Shown: positions 2,702 through 32,818 of the stretch, in pieces
Position numbering within the stretch: the stretch's first letter is position 1
Layout: the number at the start of each line of letters is the position of its first letter
Assembly (NCBI GenBank): GCA_009937385.1
Contig: JAACFL010000002.1
Span: 1 to 32,818 of the forward strand
Origin: Gammaproteobacteria bacterium
GTDB lineage: Bacteria; Pseudomonadota; Gammaproteobacteria; QNFN01
Direction of reading: 5' to 3'
DNA: 32,818 bases
The notes under the pieces: generated by a model
Databases searched by the model: none
What the model was told of the DNA's origin: nothing
What the model saw: only the letters and a program-made list of their open reading frames with translations
Translations under genes and position numbers: made by a program

Positions 2702-2816
2702 ACTCTCGATTATCCCACGTTCGCGAGCGGCCGCGGCATGGCGAGGGTGGCTGGGGATTCGGTTATAGTACGCACGACCCGCGCGATTGCGCGGCCACGA
2801 CCGCGCCGAAAATCGA

Positions 2817-3572
2817 ATGCACATCCTGCTCAGTAACGACGACGGCTACCTCGCCGAGGGGCTCCGACGGCTCGCCGAGGCGCTGGCCGGGGTGGGCCGG
2901 TTGACCGTCGTCGCCCCGGACCGCAATCGCAGCGGGGCCAGTAACTCGCTGACCCTCGACGTCCCGCTGCGCATGCACCGGCTCGACGATGGCACCATTC
3001 GCGTCGACGGCACGCCGACCGACTGCGTGCACCTCGCCATCACTGGGCTGCTCGACGAGGAACCCGACATGGTGGTCTCGGGGATCAACTCCGGGCCGAA
3101 TCTCGGCGACGACGTGATCTATTCAGGAACCGTCGCCGCGGCGATGGAGGGGCGTTTCCTCGGGCTGCCGGCGATCGCCGTGTCGATGGGCAGCTACGAC
3201 GCCGAGCACTACGCCAGCGGCGTGCGCGCCACCCTGCAACTGGTCGATCAGCTGCAGAACGTTCCACTGCCAACGGACTCCATTCTCAACGTCAACGTCC
3301 CCGACCTGCCGTGGGAGCAGATCCGCGGCTTCCGCGCCACGCGACTCGGTCACCGTCACCGCGCCGAGCCGGTGGCGCGCAGCACCGATCCACGCGGACG
3401 CGAGATCTTCTGGATCGGCCCGGCCGGGCCGGAGCAGGACGCCGGTCCGGGCACCGACTTCGACGCGGTGCGCAATGGCTACGTGTCGGTCACGCCGCTG
3501 CAGGTCGACCTGACCCGCCACGCGGCACTCGACACGGTCGCGGCATGGCTCGATAGCGGAGCGCGCGCGTGA
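2817..3572 (+). CDS. surE: 5'/3'-nucleotidase SurE
   Basis: [50 protein letters not shown]; classic operon position. Confidence 0.97.
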
Positions 3573-4228
3573 ACGCCGGGCACAGCGGCATCGGCATGAC
3601 CTCGCTGCGCACCCGCGACCGCCTGGTCGCCCGGCTGCGCGAGGAGGGGATCCGCAACCCCGCGGTGCTGGAAGCGATCCGCGAGGTGCCGCGCCACCTG
3701 TTCGTCGACGAGGCGCTCGCGAGCCGCGCCTACGAGGACACCGCGCTGCCGATCGGTTTCGGCCAGACCATCTCGCAGCCCTACATCGTCGCACTGATGA
3801 CCGAGGCGGTGCTGGCCGAAGGATCACCGCAGAGCGTGCTCGAGGTCGGCACCGGTTCCGGCTACCAGGCCGTGGTGCTGTCGCGCCTGGTGCCGAAGGT
3901 CTACAGCGTCGAGCGGCACGCCAAGCTGCTGCAGCGGTCTCGTCAGCTGTTCCGTGAGCTGCGTATCTACAACATCAAGACCAACCTGAGCGACGGCAGC
4001 TGGGGCTGGCCGGGTCATGCGCCGTACGACGCGATCGTGGTCACCGCGGCGCCGCTCGAAGTGCCCCAGGCCCTGCTCGAGCAGCTCGCCGACGGCGGTC
4101 GTCTGGTGATCCCGGTCGGTGATCGCGGTGGCCAGGAACTGCGCGTGATCACGCGCAACGGCTACCGTTTCGAGGAGTCGCACCTGGCCTGGGTGAGCTT
4201 CGTGCCACTGGTGCCGGGGCGCAGCTGA
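3569..4228 (+). CDS. pcm: Protein-L-isoaspartate O-methyltransferase
   Basis: [34 protein letters not shown] and FVPLV motifs; GTGA overlap with the surE stop. Confidence 0.97.
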
Positions 4229-4229
4229 G

Positions 4230-4805
4230 ATGCGAATCTTCTCGGCACTCTACGAGCGGACGATGACCTGGGCCGCGCATCGCCATGCCCCCTGGTATCT
4301 GGGTGGCCTGAGTTTCGCCGAATCGTCGTTTTTCCCGATCCCGCCGGACGTGATGCTGGCGCCGATGAGCCTGGCACGCACCGACCGTGCGTGGTGGTAC
4401 GCGACGCTCACGACCGTGGCCTCGGTGGTCGGCGGCCTGTTCGGCTACCTGATCGGCATGCTGGCGATCGACGCGGTGTTGCCGTTGCTGGTCGATGCCG
4501 GCTACGGATCCCGCTACGACCAGGCCATCGCCTGGTTCGCCGAGTGGGGCGTCTGGGTGGTGTTCATCGCCGGCTTCTCACCGATTCCCTACAAGCTGTT
4601 CACCATCTCCGCCGGAGCCAGCGCCATGGCGCTGCTGCCGTTTACGATCGCCTCGCTGGTCGGGCGCGGCGCACGCTTCTTCATGGTTGCCGGCCTGATG
4701 CGCTGGGGTGGCGCGCCGATGGAGAAGCTCCTGCGCACCTACATCGACCGTCTCGGCTGGCTGGTGGTCTTTCTGGGCGTCGTCTATGTCCTGATCGCAC
4801 ACTGA
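4230..4805 (+). CDS. yqaA: YqaA/DedA family membrane protein
   Basis: SFAESSFFPIPPDVML and GFSPIPYKLFTI motifs; lies between pcm and nlpD. Confidence 0.9.
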   Translation: MRIFSALYERTMTWAAHRHAPWYLGGLSFAESSFFPIPPDVMLAPMSLARTDRAWWYATLTTVASVVGGLFGYLIGMLAIDAVLPLLVDAGYGSRYDQAIAWFAEWGVWVVFIAGFSPIPYKLFTISAGASAMALLPFTIASLVGRGARFFMVAGLMRWGGAPMEKLLRTYIDRLGWLVVFLGVVYVLIAH

Positions 4806-5650
4806 TGAAGCGCGCGCGCATCAATCTCCTGCCCATGCTCCTGGGCATCCTGCTGCTGACCGCCTGCGGTCCGCCACCCCCCGCCCCGGTCGCGAACCGC
4901 AGCAGTGGCGCGCCGCCGCCGCCAACCTCCTACACCGTGCGCCGAGGCGACACCCTCTACTCGATCGCCTGGCAGTACGGTCTCGATCACCGCCAGGTGG
5001 CGGTGTGGAACGGCATCGGCGCACCCTACACGATCTATCCCGGACAGCGACTCGCGATGCGCAAGCCGGCGGTGCCCGCGTCGCGGCCTCCACCGGCGCC
5101 GAGCCGGACGACGCAGGCAAGCAAGCCGGCACCGAAACCGGCCACGAAACCGAAAACCGTTTCGCCACCGCCCCGGACCGCCACGGCGAAACCGGCGCCG
5201 AGCAAGCCGGCCACCAGCGCACCCCGCAAGGCGCCGCGCAGCGACCCGGCGGCGCCGAGTGCGACCCGCAGCGTGGGTGGCGTCGCCTGGCGCTGGCCGA
5301 CGCGCGGTCGTCTCTATCGCACGTTCAATGCCAGCGACCCGACGCGCAAGGGCGTCGACATCGTCGGCAGCGAGGGGCAGTCGGTGTACGCTGCGTCGGG
5401 TGGCAAGGTGGTCTACAGCGGCAACGGCCTGGTCGGTTACGGCAACCTCATCATCATCAAGCACAACAACACCTACCTGAGCGCGTACGGACACAACCGT
5501 GAACTCCTCGTGGGTGAGGGTGACGACGTTGCTCCAGGGCAGTTGATTGCGAAAATGGGTCGGGTAGATAATGATCGGGCAATGTTGCACTTTGAAATTC
5601 GCCGCCAGGGAAAGCCGGTCGACCCATTGCGACTGCTGCCGAAGGGATGA
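4805..5650 (+). CDS. nlpD: LysM / M23 peptidase-like lipoprotein NlpD
   Basis: Start reassigned to the ATG at 4805 (TGATG overlap with yqaA). Lipobox LLLTAC, LysM domain (YTVRRGDTLYSIA), Pro/Ala/Lys linker and M23 domain (WRWPT, GYGNLIIIKH, LHFEIR); upstream of rpoS. Confidence 0.95.
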   Translation: MKRARINLLPMLLGILLLTACGPPPPAPVANRSSGAPPPPTSYTVRRGDTLYSIAWQYGLDHRQVAVWNGIGAPYTIYPGQRLAMRKPAVPASRPPPAPSRTTQASKPAPKPATKPKTVSPPPRTATAKPAPSKPATSAPRKAPRSDPAAPSATRSVGGVAWRWPTRGRLYRTFNASDPTRKGVDIVGSEGQSVYAASGGKVVYSGNGLVGYGNLIIIKHNNTYLSAYGHNRELLVGEGDDVAPGQLIAKMGRVDNDRAMLHFEIRRQGKPVDPLRLLPKG

Positions 5651-5752
5651 TGGTCAGCCCGTACGAGCTTTCCATCGTTCCCGAACCGCAGCCCAAAGGG
5701 TAGGACGAAGACGCACGTGATGTCCGATCACGAGGAGTCTAAGGAGCGGACG

Positions 5753-6745
5753 ATGCTAGGAGAGGACGATATGGAGAATCTCGCCGACCAGGAGGTCGAC
5801 CTCAACTATTCGGCTGAAGCCGACGCTGACACCGAAGACGCCAGTCCCGAGGTCGTGGACGAGGGACCGCGGACCTTTGCCAAGGAGTCCAAGCTGACCT
5901 CGAGCAGCAGTGCGCAGCTCGATGCCACGCGACTCTATCTCAACGAGATAGGTGCCTCGCCACTGCTCACCGCGGAGGAGGAGGTCTACTTCGCGCGGCG
6001 TGCGCAGAAGGGTGACGAGGCGTCGCGCAAGCGCATGATCGAGAGCAATCTGCGGCTGGTGGTGCGCATCGCGCGTCGCTACGTCAACCGCGGGCTCGCG
6101 CTGCTCGACCTGATCGAGGAGGGCAACCTCGGCCTGATACGCGCGGTCGAGAAGTTCGACCCCGAGCGCGGCTTCCGCTTCTCGACCTACGCCACCTGGT
6201 GGATCCGCCAGACCATCGAGCGCGCGATCATGAACCAGACGCGCACCGTGCGCCTGCCGATCCACGTGGTCAAGGAGATCAACGTCTACCTGCGCGCGGC
6301 CCGGCGCCTGGCGCAGAGCCTCGACCACGAGCCGACCATCGAGGAGATCGCCGAACTGCTCGACAAGCCGGTCGAGGAGGCGAAACGGATGATGGGTCTC
6401 AACGAGCGCGAGACCTCGGTCGATACGCCGCTTTCACGGGAGGTGGACAAGCCGCTCCTCGAGGCGATCCCCGACGAGACGCTGATCGACCCGTCCGACG
6501 CGCTGCAGGATCAGACCATGCACGACAAGCTCGAGGAGTGGCTCGGGCAGCTGACCGACAAGCAGCGCGAGGTGGTCGAGCGCCGCTTCGGACTGCACGG
6601 TTACGAGTCGGCGACCCTCGAGCAGGTCGGCAACGAGATCGGCGTCACCCGCGAACGGGTCCGGCAGATCCAGATGGACGCGCTGCAGCGGTTGCGCAAG
6701 ATCATGGAGAACACCGGCTACTCGGCGAGCACGCTGTTCAGGTGA
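5753..6745 (+). CDS. rpoS: RNA polymerase sigma factor RpoS
   Basis: [69 protein letters not shown] and TRERVRQIQ. The ATG at 5753 has AAGGAG 6 nt upstream; alternative starts are 5717 and 5720. Confidence 0.96.
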
Positions 6746-13843: not shown

Positions 13844-14851
13844 TCAGCCCGGGTGCTGGCCCCGGCGCTGCCGGGAGGGGGAGTGCCCGGTCCAGCGGCG
13901 GAAAGTGCGCGCGAAGCTGCTCGGTTCCGAGAACCCCAGCAGGTAGGAGATCTCGGTGATCGACAGGCGCGGATTCGCGACGTACTGCAACGCCAGGTCG
14001 CGACGCACCGACTCGAGCAGTTCGCGGTAGGCGGTGCCCGCATCACGCAGCCGGCGCTGGAAAGTCCGCAGGCTGAGGTGCAGCGCCGTGGCGATCGACT
14101 CCTCGCTGAACCTTCCCGACGGCAGCTGGCGCAGGATCTCGGCCTTCGCGCGTCCTACCACGTCGTCGCGATCGAGCGCGGCGAGGTAGTTCGCGATCAT
14201 CGTCTCGGCACTGGTCAGCAGTTCCATGTTGGCGGTCGACAGCGGCCGTTCGAGTTCGGCGTGCGGCAGCACGAGTGCGTGATGTGGAGCGTCGTACTCG
14301 ATAGGGCAGGCAAGGAACTCGGCCAGCGGGGCGGTGCATCCGCTCTTCTGATGCGACAGCAACACGCGTCGCGGTGAAAAGTTCGCGTCGAGGCTCATCC
14401 GGCACAGCTTGACCAGAACCACGACAGCAGCGTGCACCGCCTCGTTCGGCGCCTGTGCGGACGGGTCGGACGGCTCGACCCTGAAACGGTACCCCTCGCG
14501 GGTGCGCTCCAGACGTGCGCATCCCGCCGTCGAGAGCAGGGCGAAGGCGTCGGCGAGGCGCCGGAACGCCTCGGCCAGCGTCGGGCTCGCGAACCAGGCG
14601 ATGCCGAGCGCATGCAGCGTGGTCGGATGCCAGTGGCGCGCGGCGGCGAGCCCGAAGCAGGGCGCGGTGCTGATCTTCGCGCCGGCATCCCAGACCTTCC
14701 CGAGGCGCGGCATCGAGATGCGGGCCCCGGCCTGGTGTAGCAGGTGCGGATCGATCCCGGCCTGACGGAACACGGAATCGGGATCGTGACCCTCCTGCTG
14801 CAGCGCCTTCCAGATCAGTAGCGGCCAGGAGGAGATGGTGGTGAAGCCCAT
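13844..14851 (-). CDS. AraC family transcriptional regulator (OruR-like N-terminal domain)
   Basis: C-terminal LHLSLRTFQRRL and ITEISYLLGFSEPSSFARTFRRWTG. Confidence 0.93.
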   Translation of the reverse strand: MGFTTISSWPLLIWKALQQEGHDPDSVFRQAGIDPHLLHQAGARISMPRLGKVWDAGAKISTAPCFGLAAARHWHPTTLHALGIAWFASPTLAEAFRRLADAFALLSTAGCARLERTREGYRFRVEPSDPSAQAPNEAVHAAVVVLVKLCRMSLDANFSPRRVLLSHQKSGCTAPLAEFLACPIEYDAPHHALVLPHAELERPLSTANMELLTSAETMIANYLAALDRDDVVGRAKAEILRQLPSGRFSEESIATALHLSLRTFQRRLRDAGTAYRELLESVRRDLALQYVANPRLSITEISYLLGFSEPSSFARTFRRWTGHSPSRQRRGQHPG

Positions 14852-14862
14852 GCAGTGGAATC

Positions 14863-15864
14863 TCAGAGCGCCTGGCGCACTGCGGTCGGCGAGGTGCCGT
14901 TCCAGCGCCGGAAGGAGCGGGCGAAGCTGCTCGGCTCCGAGAAGCCGAGCAGGTAGGAGATCTCGGTGATCGAGTAGCGCGGGTTGGCAAGGTACTTTCC
15001 GGCCAGGTCACGGCGCACGTCGTCGACCAGTTCACGGTAGACCGTGCCGTTGTCGCGCAGGCGGCGCTGGAACGTCCGCAGGCTCATGTTGAGCGCGCTC
15101 GCCACCGTCTCCTCGCTGGTCTTTCCGGAAGGCAGCTGGCGCATGATCTCGCCACGTGTGCGCGCGACGATGTCGCCGTGCTCCAGCCCTGACAGGTAGT
15201 CGGCGACGACCTTTTCCGAGCTGCTGAGCAGGTCGAGATTCGCCGTTGGCAAGGGTCGCTCGAGGTCGACCGTCGTGAACGACAACCCATAGCGCGGCTG
15301 CTCGTACTCGATGGCACAGCCGAAGTAGGCTTCCAGCGAGTCGGTGCAGCCGGTCTCGGCGTGTGCCAGGTGCATCGCTGCAGGTGCCAGGTGGCCGCCG
15401 ACGCAGAGCCGGGCCATGTCCAGCACCGTGGCCAGCGTCGCGTGCTGCTCCTCCACGTGTCCCGTGACGCTCTCATCGGCGAAGGTCCACGAGAAATGGT
15501 GGCCCGAAGGGATCGGTTCGAGGTGGAAGTGGGTCGCATCGGTGACCACCGTCGAGAAGCGCACGAAACGCTCGAAGGCCTCCATCAGGGTGTGGCTCGC
15601 GAGGCAGGCGATTCCCAGCGCGTGCAGGGTCGTCGGGTGCCAGTGGCGTGCCACCTCGAGTCCGAAGCAACCCTCCCCGGCACTGACTCTCGAGGCCTCG
15701 ATCCAGCAGCGCTCCAGCCGGCTTTCGGTGACCCGGGAACCGGCGTCACCGAGCAGCTGCGGATCGATGTCCGCCAAGTTGAAGACCGGGCGTGGATCGT
15801 GACCACCGTCCTCGAGGGCCCTCCAGATCAGAAGCGGCCATGAGGCCAGCGTGGTGAAACTCAC
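14863..15864 (-). CDS. AraC family transcriptional regulator (paralogue of the adjacent gene)
   Basis: LNMSLRTFQRRL and ITEISYLLGFSEPSSFARSFRRWNG; shares FTT..SWPLLIW.AL and ARHWHPTTLHALGIA with its neighbour. Confidence 0.93.
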   Translation of the reverse strand: MSFTTLASWPLLIWRALEDGGHDPRPVFNLADIDPQLLGDAGSRVTESRLERCWIEASRVSAGEGCFGLEVARHWHPTTLHALGIACLASHTLMEAFERFVRFSTVVTDATHFHLEPIPSGHHFSWTFADESVTGHVEEQHATLATVLDMARLCVGGHLAPAAMHLAHAETGCTDSLEAYFGCAIEYEQPRYGLSFTTVDLERPLPTANLDLLSSSEKVVADYLSGLEHGDIVARTRGEIMRQLPSGKTSEETVASALNMSLRTFQRRLRDNGTVYRELVDDVRRDLAGKYLANPRYSITEISYLLGFSEPSSFARSFRRWNGTSPTAVRQAL

Positions 15865-17532: not shown

Positions 17533-17943
17533 CTACTCTCCCTCCAGCCAGGCACCGTACCCCCGAAACAGCACCTTGACGTCTTCCCGACCGGCGATGC
17601 GCAGGGCCATGTGGGCCTTCGATGAAAGCATGCCGGTATCGCAGTAGAGAACGACGGGACGGTCGTCCGGGATCTCGCCACGGCGCGTCAGGATCTGTCG
17701 CCACTCGATGTTGATCGCCCCGGGGATGTGACCGGCCGCGAAGCGCTCCGGGCTGCGGGTGTCGATGAAAAGCACGCCGCCGAGTTCGACCGAGGCGAGT
17801 TGTCCTGCGGTGATCGTGCCGTCGGTGTACTGAGCGAAATCGAGGTACTCCTGGAGCGCGGCGATCTCCCGGGAGTCGTCCGCCACTCCGGCACCCGGCA
17901 ACAGAGAGGCCAGCAGCACGGAGACCGGAAGAATCCGTTTCAT
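17533..17943 (-). CDS. Exported single-domain rhodanese-like sulfurtransferase
   Basis: Signal peptide, FIDTRSPERFAAGHIPGAINI, active-site loop VLYCDTGMLS and a GYGAW C-terminus. Confidence 0.9.
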   Translation of the reverse strand: MKRILPVSVLLASLLPGAGVADDSREIAALQEYLDFAQYTDGTITAGQLASVELGGVLFIDTRSPERFAAGHIPGAINIEWRQILTRRGEIPDDRPVVLYCDTGMLSSKAHMALRIAGREDVKVLFRGYGAWLEGE

Positions 17944-23424: not shown

Positions 23425-23628
23425 TCAGGCGGCGCTCTTGGAGTCGTCGGCCTTGCAGGTGCGGATGCCGAACAGGGTGTAGGCCGGGCACCAGCGAAAC
23501 AGTCCGGTGGCCAGCGGTACCACCCCGATGTAACCCCAGACGGGGATGATGCCCATGACGGTGAGCGCGATCAGCGCGAGGCCGGCAACGATGCGCAGGA
23601 TCTGGTCGATACTACCAACGTTCTGCAT
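23425..23628 (-). CDS. DUF2892 (YgaP-like) small membrane protein
   Basis: MQNVGSIDQILRIVAG...PLATGLFRWCPAYTLFGIRTC; AGGAG SD; start reassigned to 23628. Confidence 0.9.
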   Translation of the reverse strand: MQNVGSIDQILRIVAGLALIALTVMGIIPVWGYIGVVPLATGLFRWCPAYTLFGIRTCKADDSKSAA

Positions 23629-23703
23629 GACGATTCTCCTGATTGGATGCACGGGGATGCGCCCCGGATAACGACCATTTGACCACGTGGCGCGGCCTGC
23701 TTC

Positions 23704-23719
23704 AGTAACCGGGGTCACA
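23704..23719 (-). promoter_or_regulatory. CRP/FNR-family box TGTGA-N6-TTACT
   Basis: The minus strand reads TGTGACCCCGGTTACT, 8/10 to TGTGA-N6-TCACA. It lies just after the Crp/Fnr stop and 75 nt upstream of the DUF2892 ATG. Confidence 0.55.
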
Positions 23720-24403: not shown

Positions 24404-25543
24404 TCAGGCGGCGGATTCGCCACGTTGGCTCGCGGCGAATCGCTGTTGCAGGTCGAGGCGCTTGAGGTAGGCATCCCTTGCGATCTGCACGTCCTCGAGG
24501 AACAGCGGCAACTCGTCGAAATGCAGAGCCTGGGGACCGTCCACCAGCGCCTTGCTCGGCTCGGGGTGGAAGTCAACCAGCACCATGTTGGCCCCGGCGA
24601 TCACCCCCTGCACCGTGGCATGCATGACGTCGAGGATGCCGTCGGGATCGGCGTCACGGGTGCCCACCGAGTGCGATGGGTCGACGCAGATCGGCATGCG
24701 TGTGAAGCGCTTGACCACCGGCACGTGGGTGAAGTCGACGAAGTTGCGGTGCGGGTCGCCGAGGTTGGACTTCATGCCGCGCAGGCAGAAGATCACGCGC
24801 TGGTTGCCCTCGCTGGCGAGGTACTCGGCAGCGTTCAGCGACTCCTCGAGGGTGATGCCGAAGCCGCGCTTGAGCAGGACCGGGTAGTCGCTCTGGCGTC
24901 CGACCTGCTTGAGCAGCTCGAAGTTCTGGATGTTGCGCGTGCCGATCTGCAGCATCACGCCGACCGGGTCGCCCGCCTCCTGCAGGGCCTCGTGGATCTC
25001 CACGACGTGGTCCTCGTGGGTGACCTCCATGGCGACCACCTGCATGCCGTACTTGCCGGCCAGCTCGAAGACGTAAGGCAGGCAGCTCTTGCCGTGGCCC
25101 TGGAACGAGTAGGGATTGGTGCGCGGCTTGTAGGCGCCCATGCGCGTGCAGACCTGGCCGTGGTCGCGCAGCACCGCGAGCATGCGCTCGACGTGCTCCG
25201 GGGTGTCGACGGCGCACAGCCCGGCGAACACCTGCAGCGTGTCCTGGCCGAAGCGCACGCCGCGATATTCCCAGGAGGTCGGGCGGCGATCGTTCTTGTG
25301 CCGGCCCAGCACGCGGTACTCGCGTGACACCCGGACCGCGCGCTCCACGCCTGGCAGGCTCGCCATGTCATCGAGGTCGAGCAGTGCGGTGTCGCCGATC
25401 AGGTAGACCTCGGTGACCATCTGCTGGGCCCCCTGCACGTGATGTACGCGCGCCTGGATGTTGGGCAGGTTGGCGAGGTGTTCCATCAGCTCGGCGTACG
25501 GTGTGCTGCCCGGCTCGAGGTTGGAGTCGAGGATCAGGATCAT
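24404..25543 (-). CDS. 3-deoxy-7-phosphoheptulonate (DAHP) synthase, type I-beta with N-terminal regulatory domain
   Basis: AGLCAVD, GAYKPRTNPYSFQG, QIGTRNIQNFELL, PVLLKRG, VDPSH and ALVDGPQAL; the ATG at 25543 overlaps the aguB stop. Confidence 0.9.
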   Translation of the reverse strand: MILILDSNLEPGSTPYAELMEHLANLPNIQARVHHVQGAQQMVTEVYLIGDTALLDLDDMASLPGVERAVRVSREYRVLGRHKNDRRPTSWEYRGVRFGQDTLQVFAGLCAVDTPEHVERMLAVLRDHGQVCTRMGAYKPRTNPYSFQGHGKSCLPYVFELAGKYGMQVVAMEVTHEDHVVEIHEALQEAGDPVGVMLQIGTRNIQNFELLKQVGRQSDYPVLLKRGFGITLEESLNAAEYLASEGNQRVIFCLRGMKSNLGDPHRNFVDFTHVPVVKRFTRMPICVDPSHSVGTRDADPDGILDVMHATVQGVIAGANMVLVDFHPEPSKALVDGPQALHFDELPLFLEDVQIARDAYLKRLDLQQRFAASQRGESAA

Positions 25544-26466
25544 GCTTGCGGGTCCTTGCCGGGTTGGGATTCGGGGTCGCGGTAACGGTGCAGGAGATCG
25601 GCGTAGGCGTCGATGCGACGGTCGCGCAGGAACGGCCAGATGCGCCGCAGCTCCTCGGTGCGGCCGAGCGGCAGGTCGACGACCAGCACCTCCGGGGCGT
25701 CGTCCGGGGCCTGGCCGAGCAGCTCGCCCTGCGGGCCGCAGGCAAAGCTGCTGCCCCAGAAGTCGATGCCCGGGCCACCGTTCGGATCGGGCTCGTGGCC
25801 GACGCGATTGCAGGCCAGCAGCGGCAGGTGATTGGCCACCGCGTGGCCGCGCTGCACGGCGATCCACGCCTCGCGCTGGCGCGTCTTTTCGTCGTCCGCG
25901 TCCGGTGGATGCCAGCCGATCGCGGTCGGGTAGAGCAGCAGCCTGGCGCCGGCGAGCGCCATCAGTCGCGCGGCCTCCGGGTACCACTGGTCCCAGCAGA
26001 CCAGGACGCCAAGCGGGCCGAGGCTGGTGTCGATCGGGCGGAAGCCCTGGTCGCCCGGAGTGAAGTAGAACTTCTCGTGAAAGCCCGGATCGTCGGGGAT
26101 GTGCATCTTGCGGTAGGTGCCGGCCAGGCTGCCGTCGCTGTCCAGCACCACGGCGGTGTTGTGGTAGATCCCCGCGGCACGGCGCTCGAACAGCGTCGTG
26201 ACGATCACCAGACCGAGTTCGGCGGCCAGCCGGCCCAGGTGTTGCGTGGTCGGGCCCGGGATCGGCTCGGCGAGGTCGAAGGTCTCGACCCGTTGCGCCT
26301 GGCAGAAGTAGCGCGACGGGTGAAGCTCCTGCAGCAGCACCAGCCGGGCGCCGGATGCGGCTGCCTCGCGCACCCCGGCATCGGCCGTTGCCAGGTTTCG
26401 AGCGAGCTCTTCGCTGGCGGCATGCTGCACCAGGGCGGCACGCAGGGTTTGCGGGGTGTCGTTCAC
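25540..26466 (-). CDS. aguB: N-carbamoylputrescine amidase (nitrilase superfamily)
   Basis: Catalytic E-K-C triad in LQELH, YRKMHIPDDPGFHEKFYF and VCWDQWYPE; WPFLRDRRIDAY; adjacent to agmatine deiminase; GTG start at 26466. Confidence 0.9.
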   Translation of the reverse strand: MNDTPQTLRAALVQHAASEELARNLATADAGVREAAASGARLVLLQELHPSRYFCQAQRVETFDLAEPIPGPTTQHLGRLAAELGLVIVTTLFERRAAGIYHNTAVVLDSDGSLAGTYRKMHIPDDPGFHEKFYFTPGDQGFRPIDTSLGPLGVLVCWDQWYPEAARLMALAGARLLLYPTAIGWHPPDADDEKTRQREAWIAVQRGHAVANHLPLLACNRVGHEPDPNGGPGIDFWGSSFACGPQGELLGQAPDDAPEVLVVDLPLGRTEELRRIWPFLRDRRIDAYADLLHRYRDPESQPGKDPQA

Positions 26467-26518
26467 GGCGTTTCGCTCGACGGGGGAGGGGGATGGTAGC
26501 ACCGGCGGGCCCGGCAGC

Positions 26519-27571
26519 TCATCCACCCAGGGGCAGTCCGGCCGGCATCTGCAGGGTGGCGCAGTGCAGGCTGCCATTCTCCTCGATCAGCGCGCGCGCT
26601 GGCACGCCGATCACCTCGCGGTCGGGGAAGGCGTCGGCGAGATGCCGCTGCGCGGTGGCATCGGCCGGGTCGCCGTAGACCGGGCACAGCACGGCGCCGT
26701 TGATGATGAGGAAGTTGGCGTAGGTCGCTGCCAGGCGCCGTCCGTCGTCGGCGTGCTGCGCGGTGGGCAGTGGCAACGGCACCAATCGGTAGGTGGCGCC
26801 GTCTGCGGTGCGCAGTGCGCGCAGTTGCTGCTCCAGGTCGTGCAACGAGGCGTGTGCCGGATCGGCACGATCCGGGCAGGTGACGTGGGCGATGGTGCGC
26901 GGATCGCAGAAGCGCACCAGCGTATCGACGTGGCCGTCGGTGTCGTCGCCCGGCAGCGGTTCCACCTCGAGCCAGATCACCCGCTGCAGGCCGAGCGCGG
27001 CCGCGAGACGGCTCTCGATGTCGGAGCGCTGGAGCCCCGGGTTGCGCGTGGCGCTGTCCAGGCAACCCGCGGTGGTCAGCAGCGAGCCGAGTCCGTCGCT
27101 TTCCAGCGCCCCCCCTTCGACCACCAGCGGCTCGCGACGCAGGTGCGTGCTGCCGAACAGTCCGCGCTCGTGCAGCAGCGCGGTCGCCAGGGCGTCGTGT
27201 GCGTGAGGGTACTTGCCGCCCCAGGCGTTGAAGGCGAAGTCGACCAGCTCGACATCACCGTCGCCGGCGACCGCCAGCGGACCGTAGTCGCGCACCCAGG
27301 TGTCGTCGGTGGGCAGGCATGCGAAGTGGAGCCGGGCTCCGGGGACTCCGGTGCCCTCGAGCCCGCCACGCACGTGGTCGCGGTGCGCCTGGTCGCGGCA
27401 GATCAGCAGCAGATCCTCGCGTTCGGCGATCGCGCGGGCCAGCGCGACGTAGTCGGATTCCGCGGCGGCCAGGCGTGGGCCCCAGTCGCTGTCGGCATGC
27501 GGCCAGGCGAGCAGCACGCCGGACTGCGGCGCCCACTCGGGAAGCAGGGTCGGCGCGGCGGGATCGCGCAT
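26519..27571 (-). CDS. aguA: Agmatine deiminase family protein
   Basis: PEWAPQ, DTWVRDYGP, FNAWGGK, EGGALE, DDTDGHVD, ATYANF and GSLHCAT (catalytic Cys); start reassigned to 27571. Confidence 0.9.
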   Translation of the reverse strand: MRDPAAPTLLPEWAPQSGVLLAWPHADSDWGPRLAAAESDYVALARAIAEREDLLLICRDQAHRDHVRGGLEGTGVPGARLHFACLPTDDTWVRDYGPLAVAGDGDVELVDFAFNAWGGKYPHAHDALATALLHERGLFGSTHLRREPLVVEGGALESDGLGSLLTTAGCLDSATRNPGLQRSDIESRLAAALGLQRVIWLEVEPLPGDDTDGHVDTLVRFCDPRTIAHVTCPDRADPAHASLHDLEQQLRALRTADGATYRLVPLPLPTAQHADDGRRLAATYANFLIINGAVLCPVYGDPADATAQRHLADAFPDREVIGVPARALIEENGSLHCATLQMPAGLPLGG

Positions 27572-27590
27572 CTTGAGGGTCCGGAAACGA

Positions 27591-27621
27591 CGACGCGCCC
27601 GTCTGGGCGACGGGCGCGTCG
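27591..27621 (-). terminator. Hairpin / putative intrinsic terminator
   Basis: CGACGCGCCCGTC-TGGGC-GACGGGCGCGTCG forms a 13-bp stem 11 nt after the stop of the 27633-27914 gene and is followed by TCGTTT on the minus strand. Confidence 0.55.
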
Positions 27622-27632
27622 GTCGTGGTGTC

Positions 27633-27914
27633 TTAGCGGTGGACGACGCTGTGCAGGACGAGGTCGTGCTCGAAGAACACGGTGTAGCCCTCGTAGACCC
27701 AGCGCGAGATGGGCGGTTCACCGACCGAGGAGACCTTCTCCTTGGGCTCGCCGAATCGCTGGGCGACCTGGTCCATGCTCATCCCGTTGCCCGGGACGAT
27801 GACCGATACCATCGGCTCGGTGGCTGACGGTCCCTGCTGGGTCGCTGTGGACTGCGCGTGGGCCGCCGAAGCGACCAGCAGCAGGACGAGGCAACAGAGC
27901 AGCTTTTTTGTCAT
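27633..27914 (-). CDS. Small secreted conserved protein (possibly SmpA/BamE-like fold)
   Basis: Signal peptide ending AHA-Q; GMSMDQVAQRFGEP...VGEPPISRWVY...TVFFE pattern; candidate extended -10 TGCTATAGT at 27955-27947. Confidence 0.8.
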   Translation of the reverse strand: MTKKLLCCLVLLLVASAAHAQSTATQQGPSATEPMVSVIVPGNGMSMDQVAQRFGEPKEKVSSVGEPPISRWVYEGYTVFFEHDLVLHSVVHR

Positions 27915-28119: not shown

Positions 28120-28599
28120 GTGAACCCCGAATCAACCATCCCGCCCGATCTCGTACTCGATGCCCGCGGTCACCGCTGCCCGCTGCCGGTGCTCCAGGCG
28201 ACCCGCGCCGCCGCGCGCCTGCCGCGCGGCGCACTGTTGCAGGTGATCTCGGACTGCCCCGGCGCGCATGCCGACCTGCAGGCCTGGGCGCGCCAGACCG
28301 GCCGCGAGCTGCTCGAGGTGACCGAAGACGGTGACGGTGGGCAGGCCTACCTGCTGCGCAACGGTGACCGCTGGTTGCCCAGTGCCGTCCTCGACATGCG
28401 TGGTCACCCGTGCCCCGCGCCGGTGATCGAGGCGGATCGGGCCCTGTCCGGCCTGGCCGATGGAAAGGTGCTCAAGTTGCTCGGCGACTGCCGCGGTTTC
28501 GCCGACGAGGTCGATACCTGGACGCGCAGCACCGGGCGCCGGCTGCTTGGCATCGTGCCGGGCCCGTCCGGCAGCTCGGTCTCCTACATCCAGGGCTGA
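28120..28599 (+). CDS. Tandem (two-domain) TusA/SirA-family sulfur carrier protein
   Basis: Two repeats, LDARGHRCPLPV and LDMRGHPCPAPV, each followed by a W.R.TG motif; GGAGG SD before the GTG. Confidence 0.88.
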   Translation: MNPESTIPPDLVLDARGHRCPLPVLQATRAAARLPRGALLQVISDCPGAHADLQAWARQTGRELLEVTEDGDGGQAYLLRNGDRWLPSAVLDMRGHPCPAPVIEADRALSGLADGKVLKLLGDCRGFADEVDTWTRSTGRRLLGIVPGPSGSSVSYIQG

Positions 28600-30323: not shown

Positions 30324-31328
30324 TCAGGCGCTGTCGCGAAAGAACGCCAGCTGCGCGGCCTCGGGGATCTCCACGCCGGTCACCCGCGCCTGGCGCAGGA
30401 GATCCCAGAAATAGCGGTAGGAGGCGCGGTCCTGGAGCTCACCCTGGTACTGGATCGCGCCCCACGACTCGGCCTGGGCGGCGAGCAGGATCGCCGCGGC
30501 GTCCTGCACCTCGGCGTAATCGGGCTTCATCGCCTCGACGATCGGCTCGATCTGCGCCGGGTAGATGCTCCACATGCGCAGGAAACCGAACTCGGTGCGT
30601 GCGCGACGTGCGTCGCTGAACGTCGCCTCGCGGTTCTTGAGATCGAGCGAGACGTTGTGCGCGGGGACCAGGCCGTTGGCCAGCGCCGCGGCGACCAGTT
30701 CGGCCTTGGCACGCGCCAGCAGGCGGTGTTCGAACTGGCCCGGGCTGCGCATCGCCGCGGCCGGGATCGCGCCGTGATGGCTGCTGACGAAGTCCATCAG
30801 ACCGAAATCGATGACCCGCAGCCACGGGGCGGTCGCGATCTTCCACACGTCACGCAGTGCCCCGTGGGTCTCGACGAGGACGTGCACCGGGATCTCGCGT
30901 GACAGGCCGGCAGCCACGACGCGCTGCTGCAGGTAGTCGACGACCGTGAAGACCTGATCGGCCGCGGTCGGCTTGGGGATGGTGAGGTGGGCTATCCGCG
31001 CGCCGGCCCCGTCGACCAGGACGTCGATGTCGCGCTGCCAGTGTGGATGGCTCGGATCGTGAATGCGCACACCGGCCATGTCGAAGCGGTTGGCATCGCT
31101 GTTCAGTACGTCCGCCACCATCTGCGCGTGCTCCGCCTCGCGTCCGGACGGCGCGCCGTCCTCGCAATCGCACGTGACGTCGAAGATCGGGCCGAGCTCC
31201 TGCTGGAGCGCCAGTGCCTTGCGCATCAGTTTCTCGGTTCCGGCGTAGTGGTCACATGCGGTGATCACCGGAAAACGCTTCTCAGCGGTAAACAGGGCGT
31301 CTTCGGGATGTATCAAGGAACTATCCAT
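30324..31328 (-). CDS. HpcH/HpaI aldolase / citrate lyase beta (CitE-like) acyl-CoA lyase family protein
   Basis: DCEDGA, GVRIHD, IPK, LVETHGAL, DFGLMDF and WSIYPAQI. Confidence 0.88.
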   Translation of the reverse strand: MDSSLIHPEDALFTAEKRFPVITACDHYAGTEKLMRKALALQQELGPIFDVTCDCEDGAPSGREAEHAQMVADVLNSDANRFDMAGVRIHDPSHPHWQRDIDVLVDGAGARIAHLTIPKPTAADQVFTVVDYLQQRVVAAGLSREIPVHVLVETHGALRDVWKIATAPWLRVIDFGLMDFVSSHHGAIPAAAMRSPGQFEHRLLARAKAELVAAALANGLVPAHNVSLDLKNREATFSDARRARTEFGFLRMWSIYPAQIEPIVEAMKPDYAEVQDAAAILLAAQAESWGAIQYQGELQDRASYRYFWDLLRQARVTGVEIPEAAQLAFFRDSA

Positions 31329-31454
31329 AACATCATGTATTTAATAAGCATTAATCTGGATGCCGACTGAGGTGAGCGGCACCCCCCGGGGCAGCGAGTC
31401 TAACCGACGCCGCATCCGTTCGTCAGGCGTTTGCGTGATCGCGGTCAACCCATG

Positions 31455-31471
31455 ATATTGCAGCGCAACAT
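31455..31471. promoter_or_regulatory. Palindrome ATATTGC-N3-GCAACAT (TGC-N3-GCA core, PhaR-like)
   Basis: 6/7 inverted repeat in the divergent intergenic region between the CitE-like gene and the GT2 operon. Confidence 0.35.
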
Positions 31472-31526
31472 CCAAGCCACTAGCATTTGACTGTCTCGCC
31501 CAATTTGGGCGCCACGGGCTTGCAGC

Positions 31527-31709
31527 ATGGAATTCTGGCAGCAGTTGCTCCTCGGTGCGCTCGCGGTCGGTGCCCTCTGGCTGTTCCTGCCTTCGGCGAA
31601 GCGTGCGATGCGTGATGCACCGAGCGGCAGCTCTTCGGACTGGATGGGACTGCTGTTACCGATCGCCGCGGTCGTGGCGTTCGTCCTGTTGCTGATCGCC
31701 CTGATCTGA
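31527..31709 (+). CDS. Small two-TM membrane protein (60 aa)
   Basis: Two hydrophobic helices separated by AMRDAPSGSSSDW; the stop lies 1 nt before the GT2 start. Confidence 0.75.
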   Translation: MEFWQQLLLGALAVGALWLFLPSAKRAMRDAPSGSSSDWMGLLLPIAAVVAFVLLLIALI

Positions 31710-31710
31710 C

Positions 31711-32718
31711 ATGAACCGAACACACCCCCAGGTCTCCATACTGATGCCGGTCCGCGACGGCGGAGAGCACCTGCGCACTGCGGTCGACAGCATTCTCGGG
31801 CAGACCCTCGACGACATTGAACTGGTGTTGGTTGACGACGGATCCCGAGACGACGCGATCGCGCATCTCGATGCGATCGATGACGACCGGCTGCAGCGCT
31901 TCGCCAACCCGGGGCAAGGGATCGTCAGCGCGCTCAATTACGCGGCGTTCATGGCGCGTGGCGACTACATCGCGCGCATGGATTCCGACGACGTGGCGTT
32001 TCCCGAGCGCCTCGAGCGCCAGGTCGAACTCCTCGAGCGCGAGCCCGGCGTGGGCATCGTCGGCGCGGAGGTCGAGATCTTCGCCGAGGATGGCGTGGGG
32101 GAGGGGTATCGCCGCTACGAGCAGTGGGTCAATGGCCTGCGGTCGCCGGCGGACATCGCGCGCGAGATCTTCGTCGAAAGCCCGATTCCACATCCGACAG
32201 CGATGCTCTCGAGCCGACTGTTCAGGGCCCTCGGCGGGTATCGCGAAGTGGCCTGGGCCGAGGATTACGATCTCTGGCTTCGCGCCCACCTGCAGGGTGT
32301 GGGCATGGCCAAGCCGGACGGGGTGCTGCTGCAGTGGCGTGATCGTGAAGGGCGCCTGTCCCGGGCCGACAGCAGGTACACCGTCGAGCGCTTCCTGGAC
32401 GCCAAGGCGCACTACCTGGCCCGGTCACGACTGCGTAACAGGGCGGCCGTGATCTGGGGCGCCGCGCCGACCGGAGCACGCCTGCATGACGCGCTGGCAC
32501 GCGAGGGGGTCACCACGTCGGCATTCATCGATATCGACCCCAAGAAGATCGGGGGCCGCAAGCGTGGCTGCCCGGTGTTGCCGGCCGAGGCGGCTGCCGA
32601 GGTGGCGCCGGCGCTGATCATCGGCGCGGTGGGCTCGCGGGGTGCGCGGGCCAGCATCCGCACCGAGCTCGACGGTCACGGCATGGTGGAGGGTGAGGAT
32701 TACCTGTTCGCAGCGTGA
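31711..32718 (+). CDS. GT2 glycosyltransferase with C-terminal Rossmann-like domain (QTGAL/B3GNTL1-like layout)
   Basis: VSILMPVRD, VDDGSRD, DxD motif RMDSDD, HPT and AEDYDLW; C-terminal domain VIWGAAPTG, FIDIDPKKIG and EGEDYLF. Confidence 0.9.
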   Translation: MNRTHPQVSILMPVRDGGEHLRTAVDSILGQTLDDIELVLVDDGSRDDAIAHLDAIDDDRLQRFANPGQGIVSALNYAAFMARGDYIARMDSDDVAFPERLERQVELLEREPGVGIVGAEVEIFAEDGVGEGYRRYEQWVNGLRSPADIAREIFVESPIPHPTAMLSSRLFRALGGYREVAWAEDYDLWLRAHLQGVGMAKPDGVLLQWRDREGRLSRADSRYTVERFLDAKAHYLARSRLRNRAAVIWGAAPTGARLHDALAREGVTTSAFIDIDPKKIGGRKRGCPVLPAEAAAEVAPALIIGAVGSRGARASIRTELDGHGMVEGEDYLFAA

Positions 32719-32818
32719 TTTCGGTTCACTCACGTGGACAGTTAGACAGTTAGGCGTCCCTGGCTCCGCAGACGTATGTGAAATATATAAATAACATTAG
32801 TTAATTAAAGTAACACAC

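Follow-up and report, generated by a model that had tools for sequence, protein, structure and literature searches.

Does a bacterium make an enzyme like the one that places a sugar on queuosine (Q) in eukaryotic tRNA? The question is raised by a gene near the 3' end of a 32,818-nucleotide (nt) stretch of DNA from a gammaproteobacterium (assembly GCA_009937385.1, contig JAACFL010000002.1, positions 1 to 32,818; hereafter the window). The window is a whole contig (G000:C187:1-32818), and there is thus nothing 3' of the gene in the assembly. A first-pass annotation had pointed to a likeness between the gene product, a family 2 glycosyltransferase (GT2) that we call P0001, and human B3GNTL1, the Q-tRNA galactosyltransferase QTGAL. 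Based on the results described below, we consider that the P0001 family is probably the prokaryotic counterpart of B3GNTL1/QTGAL, and we tentatively propose that P0001 is a cytoplasmic, inverting GT2 that glycosylates Q-containing tRNA, a function that we hold to be possible rather than probable.

P0001 is predicted to join a GT-A domain to a small Rossmann-like domain

The N-terminal part of P0001 is a GT2 catalytic domain. Residues 9-163 matched PF00535 (E = 1.5e-25; 90.5 bits against a gathering cut-off of 23.3). We superposed solved structures on an AlphaFold2 model of P0001 that was built with 40 homologues as input (predicted local distance difference test 96.3, predicted template modelling score 0.93). 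Using VIA-align, residues 1-243 of the model matched the chondroitin polymerase K4CP (2z86_A) with Z 23.1 and a root-mean-square deviation (rmsd) of 2.6 Å over 220 residues, and SpsA of B. subtilis (1h7l_A) also matched the model with Z 23.1. Foldseek agreed, matching K4CP to the GT-A part with E = 1.8e-15. WrtF, heparosan synthase, TarP and RmlT have the same GT-A fold (with K4CP and SpsA, Z 20-23, rmsd 2.6-3.7 Å, 216-242 residues), as does TarS with a looser fit (Z 21.1, rmsd 5.2 Å, 254 residues). These solved GT2s are 15-24% identical to P0001 and lack a C-terminal Rossmann-like domain arranged as in P0001.

Two groups of acidic residues are in register with the second GT-A domain of K4CP. 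D91, D93 and D94 align with its DSDD, and E184-D185-Y186-D187 aligns with its VDYD, giving a shared (E/V)DYD motif. Both groups were invariant in an alignment of 40 family sequences and in 15 divergent members, and D185 was invariant in 79 sequences. The second group is presumably catalytic, as we take from general GT2 enzymology.

The C-terminal part of P0001 forms a separate domain in the model. The extra alpha/beta domain that had been suspected there was recovered as beta-alpha-beta elements at residues 246-333 (DSSP on the AlphaFold2 model), and the small Rossmann-like domain of 3nkl_B superposed on residues 242-335 with Z 13.3 and rmsd 1.9 Å over 90 residues (VIA-align). In the alignment and the model, G250-x-G252-x-x-G255 is kept and the acidic residue D274 closes strand 2; GxGxxG with an acidic residue after strand 2 is the classic nucleotide-binding fingerprint. 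In a profile search, this part matched the N-domain of VioB (E = 2.9e-4) and Rex (E = 0.0012). PF02629 (CoA_binding) was below threshold in P0001 (residues 246-312) and over its cut-off in the homologues P0075 and P0108, and TIGR03570 (NeuD/PglB/VioB) matched only the Rossmann-like part, at residues 247-324 (E = 2e-4; 21 bits against a cut-off of 160.8). At the level of a predicted structure, these results confirmed that P0001 combines a GT-A domain of the GT2 type with a small Rossmann-like domain.

The arrangement of the two domains differs from that in known sugar-nucleotide enzymes. In the NeuD/PglD/VioB acetyltransferases and the WbpM/PglF-type dehydratases (PglD_N, CoA_binding; 3nkl, 7txp), the small Rossmann-like domain binds the nucleotide part of the sugar-nucleotide, and it has its fold and GxGxxG-type motif in common with residues 242-335 of P0001. 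However, in those enzymes the domain is N-terminal to a left-handed beta-helix or to a short-chain dehydrogenase/reductase (SDR) domain, whereas in P0001 it is C-terminal to the GT-A domain, the protein ends at residue 335, and the scores for those families are far under the cut-offs. Among the matches listed from sequence, profile and structure searches of the PDB, there was no chain with both domains so arranged.

P0001 appears to be a soluble protein. Its highest mean hydrophobicity over 19 residues on the Kyte-Doolittle scale was 1.64, at residue 289, within confidently modelled Rossmann strands and helices, and residues 8-14 are the first GT-A strand of the model. These results bear out the earlier observation that there is no transmembrane or signal segment, and because the sole mildly hydrophobic 19-mer is inside the Rossmann fold, we regard P0001 as soluble. 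The two domains are joined by a basic linker in which K201, W209, R215 and R222 were invariant in the 40-sequence alignment (Table 1).

Table 1. Features of the glycosyltransferase gene and the small open reading frame 5' of it (coordinates are those of the window).
Feature	Coordinates	Strand	Description	Basis
Whole glycosyltransferase gene	31711..32718	+	335 aa (P0001), ATG start, stop codon included; predicted soluble two-domain GT2	Open reading frame list, translation
GT-A catalytic domain	31711..32439	+	Residues 1-243	PF00535 and structure superposition
D91-S-D93-D94	31981..31992	+	DxD-type metal/nucleotide-sugar motif	Alignments
I153-FVESPIPHPT-163	32167..32199	+	Family-specific motif; candidate acceptor-side loop	Conservation; role inferred
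E184-D185-Y186-D187	32260..32271	+	Candidate catalytic-base region	Conservation; role inferred
Basic linker	32311..32430	+	Residues 201-240; isoelectric point (pI) 10.4; conserved K201, R210, R215, R222, K232	Charge and conservation
Small Rossmann-like domain (CoA_binding / PglD_N-like)	32434..32715	+	Residues 242-335	DSSP, superposition, profile matches
Small open reading frame	31527..31709	+	60 aa, two hydrophobic segments; stop 1 nt before the glycosyltransferase start codon	

The motifs are conserved blocks of a widespread family

The strings that had suggested a likeness to B3GNTL1 are conserved throughout the P0001 family. All six of the bacterial strings quoted in the first-pass annotation were found in the translation of P0001: RRYEQWVNGL (residues 134-143), IFVESPIPHPT (153-163), AEDYDL (183-188), AVIWGAAPTGARL (246-258), SAFIDIDPKKI (270-280) and EGEDYLF (327-333). 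Each is within the most conserved blocks of the 40-sequence alignment, in which W139, N141, E156, S157, P158, P160, P162, E184, D185, Y186, D187, G250, F272, G281 and E327, among others, were invariant. The aligned sequences ranged from 48 to 87% in identity, with conservation running over the full length and across phyla, and relatives in the ESM Atlas matched structurally with template modelling scores of 0.93-0.97 over 328-332 residues. Judged from the alignment, the strings are conserved family blocks, and chance strings are ruled out.

The family is large, and its members are uncharacterised. A word-indexed homologue search gave 4196 matches among 8000 scored, and the 120 homologues listed were 47-100% identical to the query over at least 89% of its length. 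When the C-terminal 230 residues were used in an exhaustive profile search, 941 representatives (clusters at 50% identity) were obtained at E<=1e-30, and the looser threshold of E<=1e-10 gave 4001. Those listed, 150 in number, were mostly of about 335 aa, with the match running to the C-terminus. Relatives were present in at least 585 GTDB species genomes, retrieved with two search patterns, one of which was the ESPIPHPT motif peptide. They are from Gammaproteobacteria, Myxococcota, Gemmatimonadota, Acidobacteriota, Chloroflexota, Verrucomicrobiota, Bacteroidota, Nitrospirota, Thermodesulfobacteriota and other groups, and cultured carriers include Sorangium strains, Minicystis rosea DSM 24000, Anaeromyxobacter soli, Spiribacter halobius and Inmirania thermothiophila. 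Many members are named 'glycosyltransferase involved in cell wall biosynthesis' by the JGI. One contig with a member of the family (L061) is from a metagenome-assembled genome (MAG) labelled Nitrosopumilus sp.; its 3.9-Mb genome has a bacterial-type QueA and TGT, which suggests a mis-binned or chimeric bin and not an archaeal member.

A tree of 74 members clustered largely by phylum, with 25 changes of phylum label compared to a minimum of 15 and a mean of 46.7 for shuffled labels. The gene therefore looks to have been passed on mostly by vertical descent inside phyla, and to a lesser extent by transfer. In a sample of 41 relatives of the host, the gene was present in six genomes, including four of the six other genomes of the host family and, outside that family, one genome among 34. 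It is missing from a 100%-complete genome of the host genus. The gene is patchy and dispensable. We found no clean indel marking its presence or absence; with the queries used, G454 had neither the gene nor the neighbouring HpcH-like gene. In a sample of 401 genomes from the phylum of G001, a full-length match was found in G001 only, and six other matches ended at profile positions 215-237.

Fusions of family members to other domains are rare. A TudS/2-thiouracil desulfurase domain (PF04463) is N-terminal to the glycosyltransferase in P0215 and P0225, and a CYTH domain is fused to it in P0363. These hint weakly at nucleotide chemistry, since they are three proteins and could be artefacts of gene calling. 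P0289, P0305 and P0345 have N-terminal extensions of 170-400 aa that matched no Pfam family.

A possible connection to phages was rejected. It had been raised by a Uroviricota GT2 cluster in the Atlas. Using tblastn against 50,697 phage records, we found matches in 31 records, all of them to the GT-A part (up to residue 236) and none covering 80% of the protein, and this search made no link to phage 7-deazaguanine systems.

The P0001 family is probably related to eukaryotic QTGAL

QTGAL is said to have been described originally by Zhao et al. (2023, Cell). According to later papers, QTGAL (formerly B3GNTL1) galactosylates Q34 of tRNA-Tyr (PMC11755703; PMC12313893); galactosyl-queuosine (galQ) carries its sugar, a beta-galactose, at the homoallylic hydroxyl of the cyclopentene ring (PMC12518689); and QTGAL orthologues have been gained and lost among insects (PMC11705514, which also gives 572.2204 as the [M+H]+ of galQ and of mannosyl-queuosine, manQ). 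These papers regard galQ and manQ as tRNA modifications of eukaryotes, the purpose of which is still debated, and date the identification of the writers QTGAL and QTMAN to 2023.

A search of the ESM Atlas gave one lead that connects the P0001 family to QTGAL. With P0091, a homologue 55% identical to P0001, as the query, the first-ranked cluster was eukaryotic and named 'UDP-GlcNAc:betaGal beta-1,3-N-acetylglucosaminyltransferase-l...' (score 0.98; 202/256 features shared, in an alignment-free comparison). The ranking excluded clusters carrying extra GT2 Pfam families typical of bacterial members, and in a calibration of the Atlas, at least 170 shared features goes with same-family matches. The members of the B3GNTL1-named cluster are 100% eukaryotic, most commonly Bacillariophyta, and the name is 'putative' and automatic. 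Eukaryotic names were absent from the 120 homologues listed in the near-length search and from the 120 listed of 149 longer-protein matches to a 202-aa C-terminal fragment, and no eukaryotic sequence was among the 11 longer-protein matches to a 79-sequence profile of the fragment or among the 150 proteins listed from the exhaustive profile search. On the basis of the Atlas lead, we consider it probable that the P0001 family is akin to QTGAL/B3GNTL1.

What is known of QTGAL is compatible with the properties of P0001. Both enzymes are of the GT2 type, one eukaryotic and the other bacterial. With tgt and queA in its genome, the host is expected to make Q34-tRNA, on which QTGAL acts. Because GT2 enzymes are inverting, transfer from a UDP-alpha-sugar would produce a beta linkage as in galQ, and the inverting chemistry presumed for the P0001 family fits the product of QTGAL. 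That product is described as beta-linked in PMC12518689.

Carriers of the family have the queuosine pathway

Genes for queuosine synthesis were found in nearly all of the carrier genomes examined. In the host, queA and tgt are adjacent on another contig (G000:C203). Of 85 genomes with a member of the family, 84 had a QueA match (PF02547) that passed its cut-off, a count made up of 50/50 and 29/30 genomes behind 80 loci, the host, and G452, G453, G456 and G487. G455 and G491, which have identical QueA matches, were counted once. The lone genome in which QueA was missed (G513, a 2.1-Mb MAG) has a bacterial-type TGT, and TGT was found in 11 of 11 carriers tested. We looked for homologues that are common in genomes lacking tgt, a pattern that the first-pass annotation had named as speaking against a role in Q-tRNA modification, and did not see it.

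We considered whether the glycosyltransferase and GluQRS (YadB), which makes glutamyl-Q on tRNA-Asp, might be mutually exclusive. If P0001 acts on Q-tRNA, the two enzymes would have the cyclopentenediol of Q34 as a common target once TGT, QueA and QueG had acted, although GluQRS is unrelated to P0001 in fold and chemistry. Mutual exclusion was rejected. TIGR03838 passed its cut-off in the host, and in the 41-genome sample it did so in carriers and non-carriers alike.

The gene is outside polysaccharide clusters

The neighbourhood of the gene lacks the hallmarks of a polysaccharide cluster, as the first-pass annotation had noted for the window. A Pfam scan of the 33 open reading frames of the window found housekeeping and regulatory genes only, among them surE, pcm, sigma factors, recJ, cyclic di-GMP enzymes, DAHP synthase, agmatine deiminase, N-carbamoylputrescine amidase and a tandem-TusA protein, and no polysaccharide genes. 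We also scanned the 80 same-strand genes, from 59 loci, that are within 200 nt of the glycosyltransferase gene. None encodes a glycosyltransferase, a flippase (Wzx) or a polymerase (Wzy). Of these neighbours, 57 had a Pfam family and were a housekeeping mix, and 23 had none. Sugar-related genes were three arabinofuranosidases, an amylase, a debranching-like enzyme, a 3-keto-disaccharide hydrolase, one epimerase and one GHMP kinase.

There is no conserved partner gene across 81 loci, as judged from crude calls of open reading frames and BLAST clustering. The largest neighbour clusters contained 19 loci (a superfamily lump that includes an ABC-ATPase) and 11 loci (UvrA-like synteny). In the closest relative, L002 (87% identity), a P-type ATPase gene is 3' of the glycosyltransferase gene, and an HpcH-like gene 5' of it is common to L002 and the window. 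Other neighbours were DinB/FGE-sulfatase genes in Sorangium and thioesterase genes. In two gammaproteobacterial MAGs (L007, 5118-6173; L016, 8836-9906), the homologue is directly 3' of a radical-SAM/DUF3641 gene, whose product we take to be of the ArsS type, of arsenosugar biosynthesis; the arsenosugar glycosyltransferase model TIGR04283 scored 33 bits with P0001, with a cut-off of 182. The single Rfam match at gathering thresholds, to a group II intron piece (D1-D4-6; 70.3 bits), is at 5350-5469 (+) of L044, from a PVC-group MAG, about 700 nt 5' of the homologue.

In the host lineage, the gene is directly downstream from a small open reading frame (Table 1). Its product had a 19-residue Kyte-Doolittle maximum of 3.2 and no Pfam match, and neither it nor the glycosyltransferase matched any PADLOC-DB family at E<=0.01. 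The small reading frame was 5' of the glycosyltransferase gene in one of 78 other loci (the close relative L002) and absent from the other 77, and at the protein level it is kept in that position in the family-level relatives L002/L084, L085 and L087 and partly in L088. It is probably co-transcribed with the glycosyltransferase gene, in the host lineage only, and may be a lineage-specific membrane partner of the glycosyltransferase or unrelated to it. Upstream from it, at about 31450-31490, the stretch TATATTGCAG.GCAACATC...GCACTAGCAT is kept between the window and L002. This stretch can be read as TTGCAG-17 nt-TAGCAT; a scan for consensus promoters made no call there, and found no promoter or terminator of consensus type in 31200-32818.

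Several other features of the window are recorded here. The tandem-TusA protein (28120-28596, +) is 159 aa long and consists of two TusA sulfurtransferase domains, and genes for a rhodanese (17536-17943) and a YgaP-like transmembrane protein (23428-23718) are elsewhere in the window. The genes for agmatine deiminase (PAD_porph) and N-carbamoylputrescine amidase (CN_hydrolase) adjoin at 25543-27721 (-) as a pair for putrescine synthesis from agmatine; their reading frames overlap by about 56 nt (26522-26577), and therefore one true start codon is probably 3' of that called. Two tandem paralogous AraC-type regulators with arabinose-binding-like N-domains are at 13847-15864 (-). At 2787-6742 there is a surE-pcm-(VTT membrane protein)-...-sigma-70-family arrangement, in which the Pfam scan omitted 4803-5716.

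What does P0001 glycosylate?

If P0001 modifies Q-tRNA, its parts could work together as follows. The GT-A domain would bind a UDP-hexose and a divalent metal via D91, D93 and D94, and an acidic residue of the E184-D185-Y-D187 block would deprotonate the acceptor hydroxyl. The ESPIPHPT loop, the basic linker and the C-terminal Rossmann-like domain, with its GxGxxG motif and D274, would hold an acceptor that contains a nucleotide. The likeliest acceptor would be the cyclopentenediol of queuosine-34 in a tRNA with a GUN anticodon, and the product would be beta-hexosyl-Q. We infer the roles of individual residues, the donor, the acceptor, the product and the target tRNA alike.

The suggestion that P0001 is a cytoplasmic tRNA or nucleoside glycosyltransferase, and not an envelope enzyme, held up in part. 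The protein is predicted to be soluble, is conserved over its full length and is encoded outside polysaccharide clusters, but the tRNA side of the suggestion gained nothing from genomic linkage. The glycosyltransferase gene was not linked to queA or tgt where they are on one chromosome; on complete chromosomes with both, it is tens of kilobases to megabases from queA. None of the four tRNA genes found in 60 loci (Pro, Pro, Thr and Trp) has a GUN anticodon, and an Rfam search at gathering thresholds found no riboswitches, including preQ1, in the window and 19 other loci. These absences weigh against a role in Q-tRNA modification, as do several other results. Three of the 80 neighbours are tRNA-related (an AspRS-type synthetase gene abutting the glycosyltransferase gene in L003, a TtuA-like PP-loop protein in L062 and a Leu/Phe-tRNA protein transferase in L006), which is no enrichment. 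The co-occurrence with QueA is expected by chance and has little power, because the background is already 67-93% (38/41 genomes in the host-class sample, and 270/401 in the sample from another phylum, that of G001, which includes six unpublished genomes). The whole protein is acidic (pI 5.2; family median 6.8), unlike many tRNA binders, and in the host lineage its gene is directly behind one for a small membrane protein. The best solved-structure matches are polysaccharide and teichoic-acid glycosyltransferases. The Atlas score is alignment-free and silent on whether the C-terminal domain is common to B3GNTL1. Finally, searches of the literature, which did not extend to subscription journals and supplements, turned up no report of bacterial B3GNTL1 homologues or of bacterial glycosyl-Q.

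P0001 could instead be an ordinary envelope GT2 (for lipopolysaccharide core, exopolysaccharide or a teichoic-like polymer) that acts on a lipid-linked acceptor at the membrane and is encoded away from its cluster. Its best partial matches, EpsE, TuaG, WcaA, K4CP, SpsA, TarP/TarS, RmlT and WrtF, and the cell-wall naming of many members by the JGI would fit such a role, and the two-segment membrane protein encoded just before it in the host lineage could tether it to the membrane. However, none of the 24 NCBIfam families listed, which include the envelope GT2 equivalogs EpsE (NF053739), TuaG (NF047683), WcaA (TIGR04017) and PgaC (TIGR03937), reached its curated cut-off, the best being EpsE with 99.3 bits against 450, and the partial matches end at about residue 240, missing the conserved C-terminal domain. 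The solved GT2s resembling P0001 (K4CP, SpsA, TarP/TarS, RmlT, WrtF and heparosan synthase) build polysaccharides or teichoic acids and have their genes within such clusters, whereas the window and the 80 neighbours had no glycosyltransferase, Wzx/Wzy or sugar-nucleotide genes, save the one epimerase and the one GHMP kinase. The small membrane protein is limited to one bacterial family. In addition, the acceptor-side motifs hardly vary between phyla whose envelopes are very different, and this, as far as sequence conservation can tell, argues for a universal acceptor. Near-invariant acceptor-side motifs, a soluble domain of a nucleotide-binding type and a gene that is never in a glycan cluster fit poorly with an envelope role, which we consider improbable. 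A conserved cytoplasmic acceptor is more likely than a role in a variable envelope.

A conserved cytoplasmic acceptor need not be Q-tRNA. P0001 could be a soluble enzyme that glycosylates a different target: a small molecule or cofactor that bears a nucleotide and is bound by the Rossmann-like domain, or else a nucleotide-sugar, an RNA of another kind or a protein, with the likeness to QTGAL reflecting a common scaffold and not a common substrate. The dinucleotide-binding fingerprint of the C-terminal domain (GxGxxG, with D274 after strand 2) is compatible with this, as are the resemblance of that domain to the N-domains of VioB/NeuD/PglD-type and WbpM-type sugar-nucleotide enzymes, the acidity of P0001 and the lack of a genomic link to Q genes. 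The neighbours are heterogeneous, from ArsS-like radical-SAM proteins to DinB/FGE-sulfatases and thioesterases, and the gene is dispensable within the host genus, which also would be consistent with another acceptor. On the other hand, no candidate acceptor pathway is found repeatedly next to the gene, since the largest clusters of neighbours are superfamily lumps or lineage-specific synteny; the nearest named relatives in the Atlas are eukaryotic proteins named for B3GNTL1; and Q-tRNA modification is the only function described for QTGAL in the accessible portions of PMC11755703 and PMC12518689. We regard another cytoplasmic acceptor as possible but somewhat unlikely. Q34-tRNA is the one acceptor that can be named concretely, given that the family is probably akin to QTGAL, and it is on this ground that we tentatively favor glycosylation of Q-tRNA as the function of P0001.

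Implications

The family may have a bearing on the origin of sugar-modified queuosine. It is conceivable, if doubtful, that some bacterial tRNAs contain hexosyl-queuosine made by this family of GT2-plus-Rossmann proteins, that the family is the prokaryotic source of eukaryotic QTGAL, and that sugar-modified Q is a bacterial invention. If so, sugar-modified Q would be found in about 1% of species, across Myxococcota, Gemmatimonadota, Acidobacteriota, Gammaproteobacteria, Bacteroidota and other phyla. This would predict a new bacterial tRNA modification, add a bacterial member to an enzyme type already known, explain where QTGAL came from in evolution, and provide simple systems, open to genetics, in which the role of the sugar on Q could be studied. 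The cultured carriers make the idea of Q-tRNA glycosylation testable. No curated model covers the full length of this family of 941 clusters (50% identity), and characterization of one member, even if its acceptor proved to be another, would annotate thousands of entries that are now probably misnamed 'glycosyltransferase involved in cell wall biosynthesis'.

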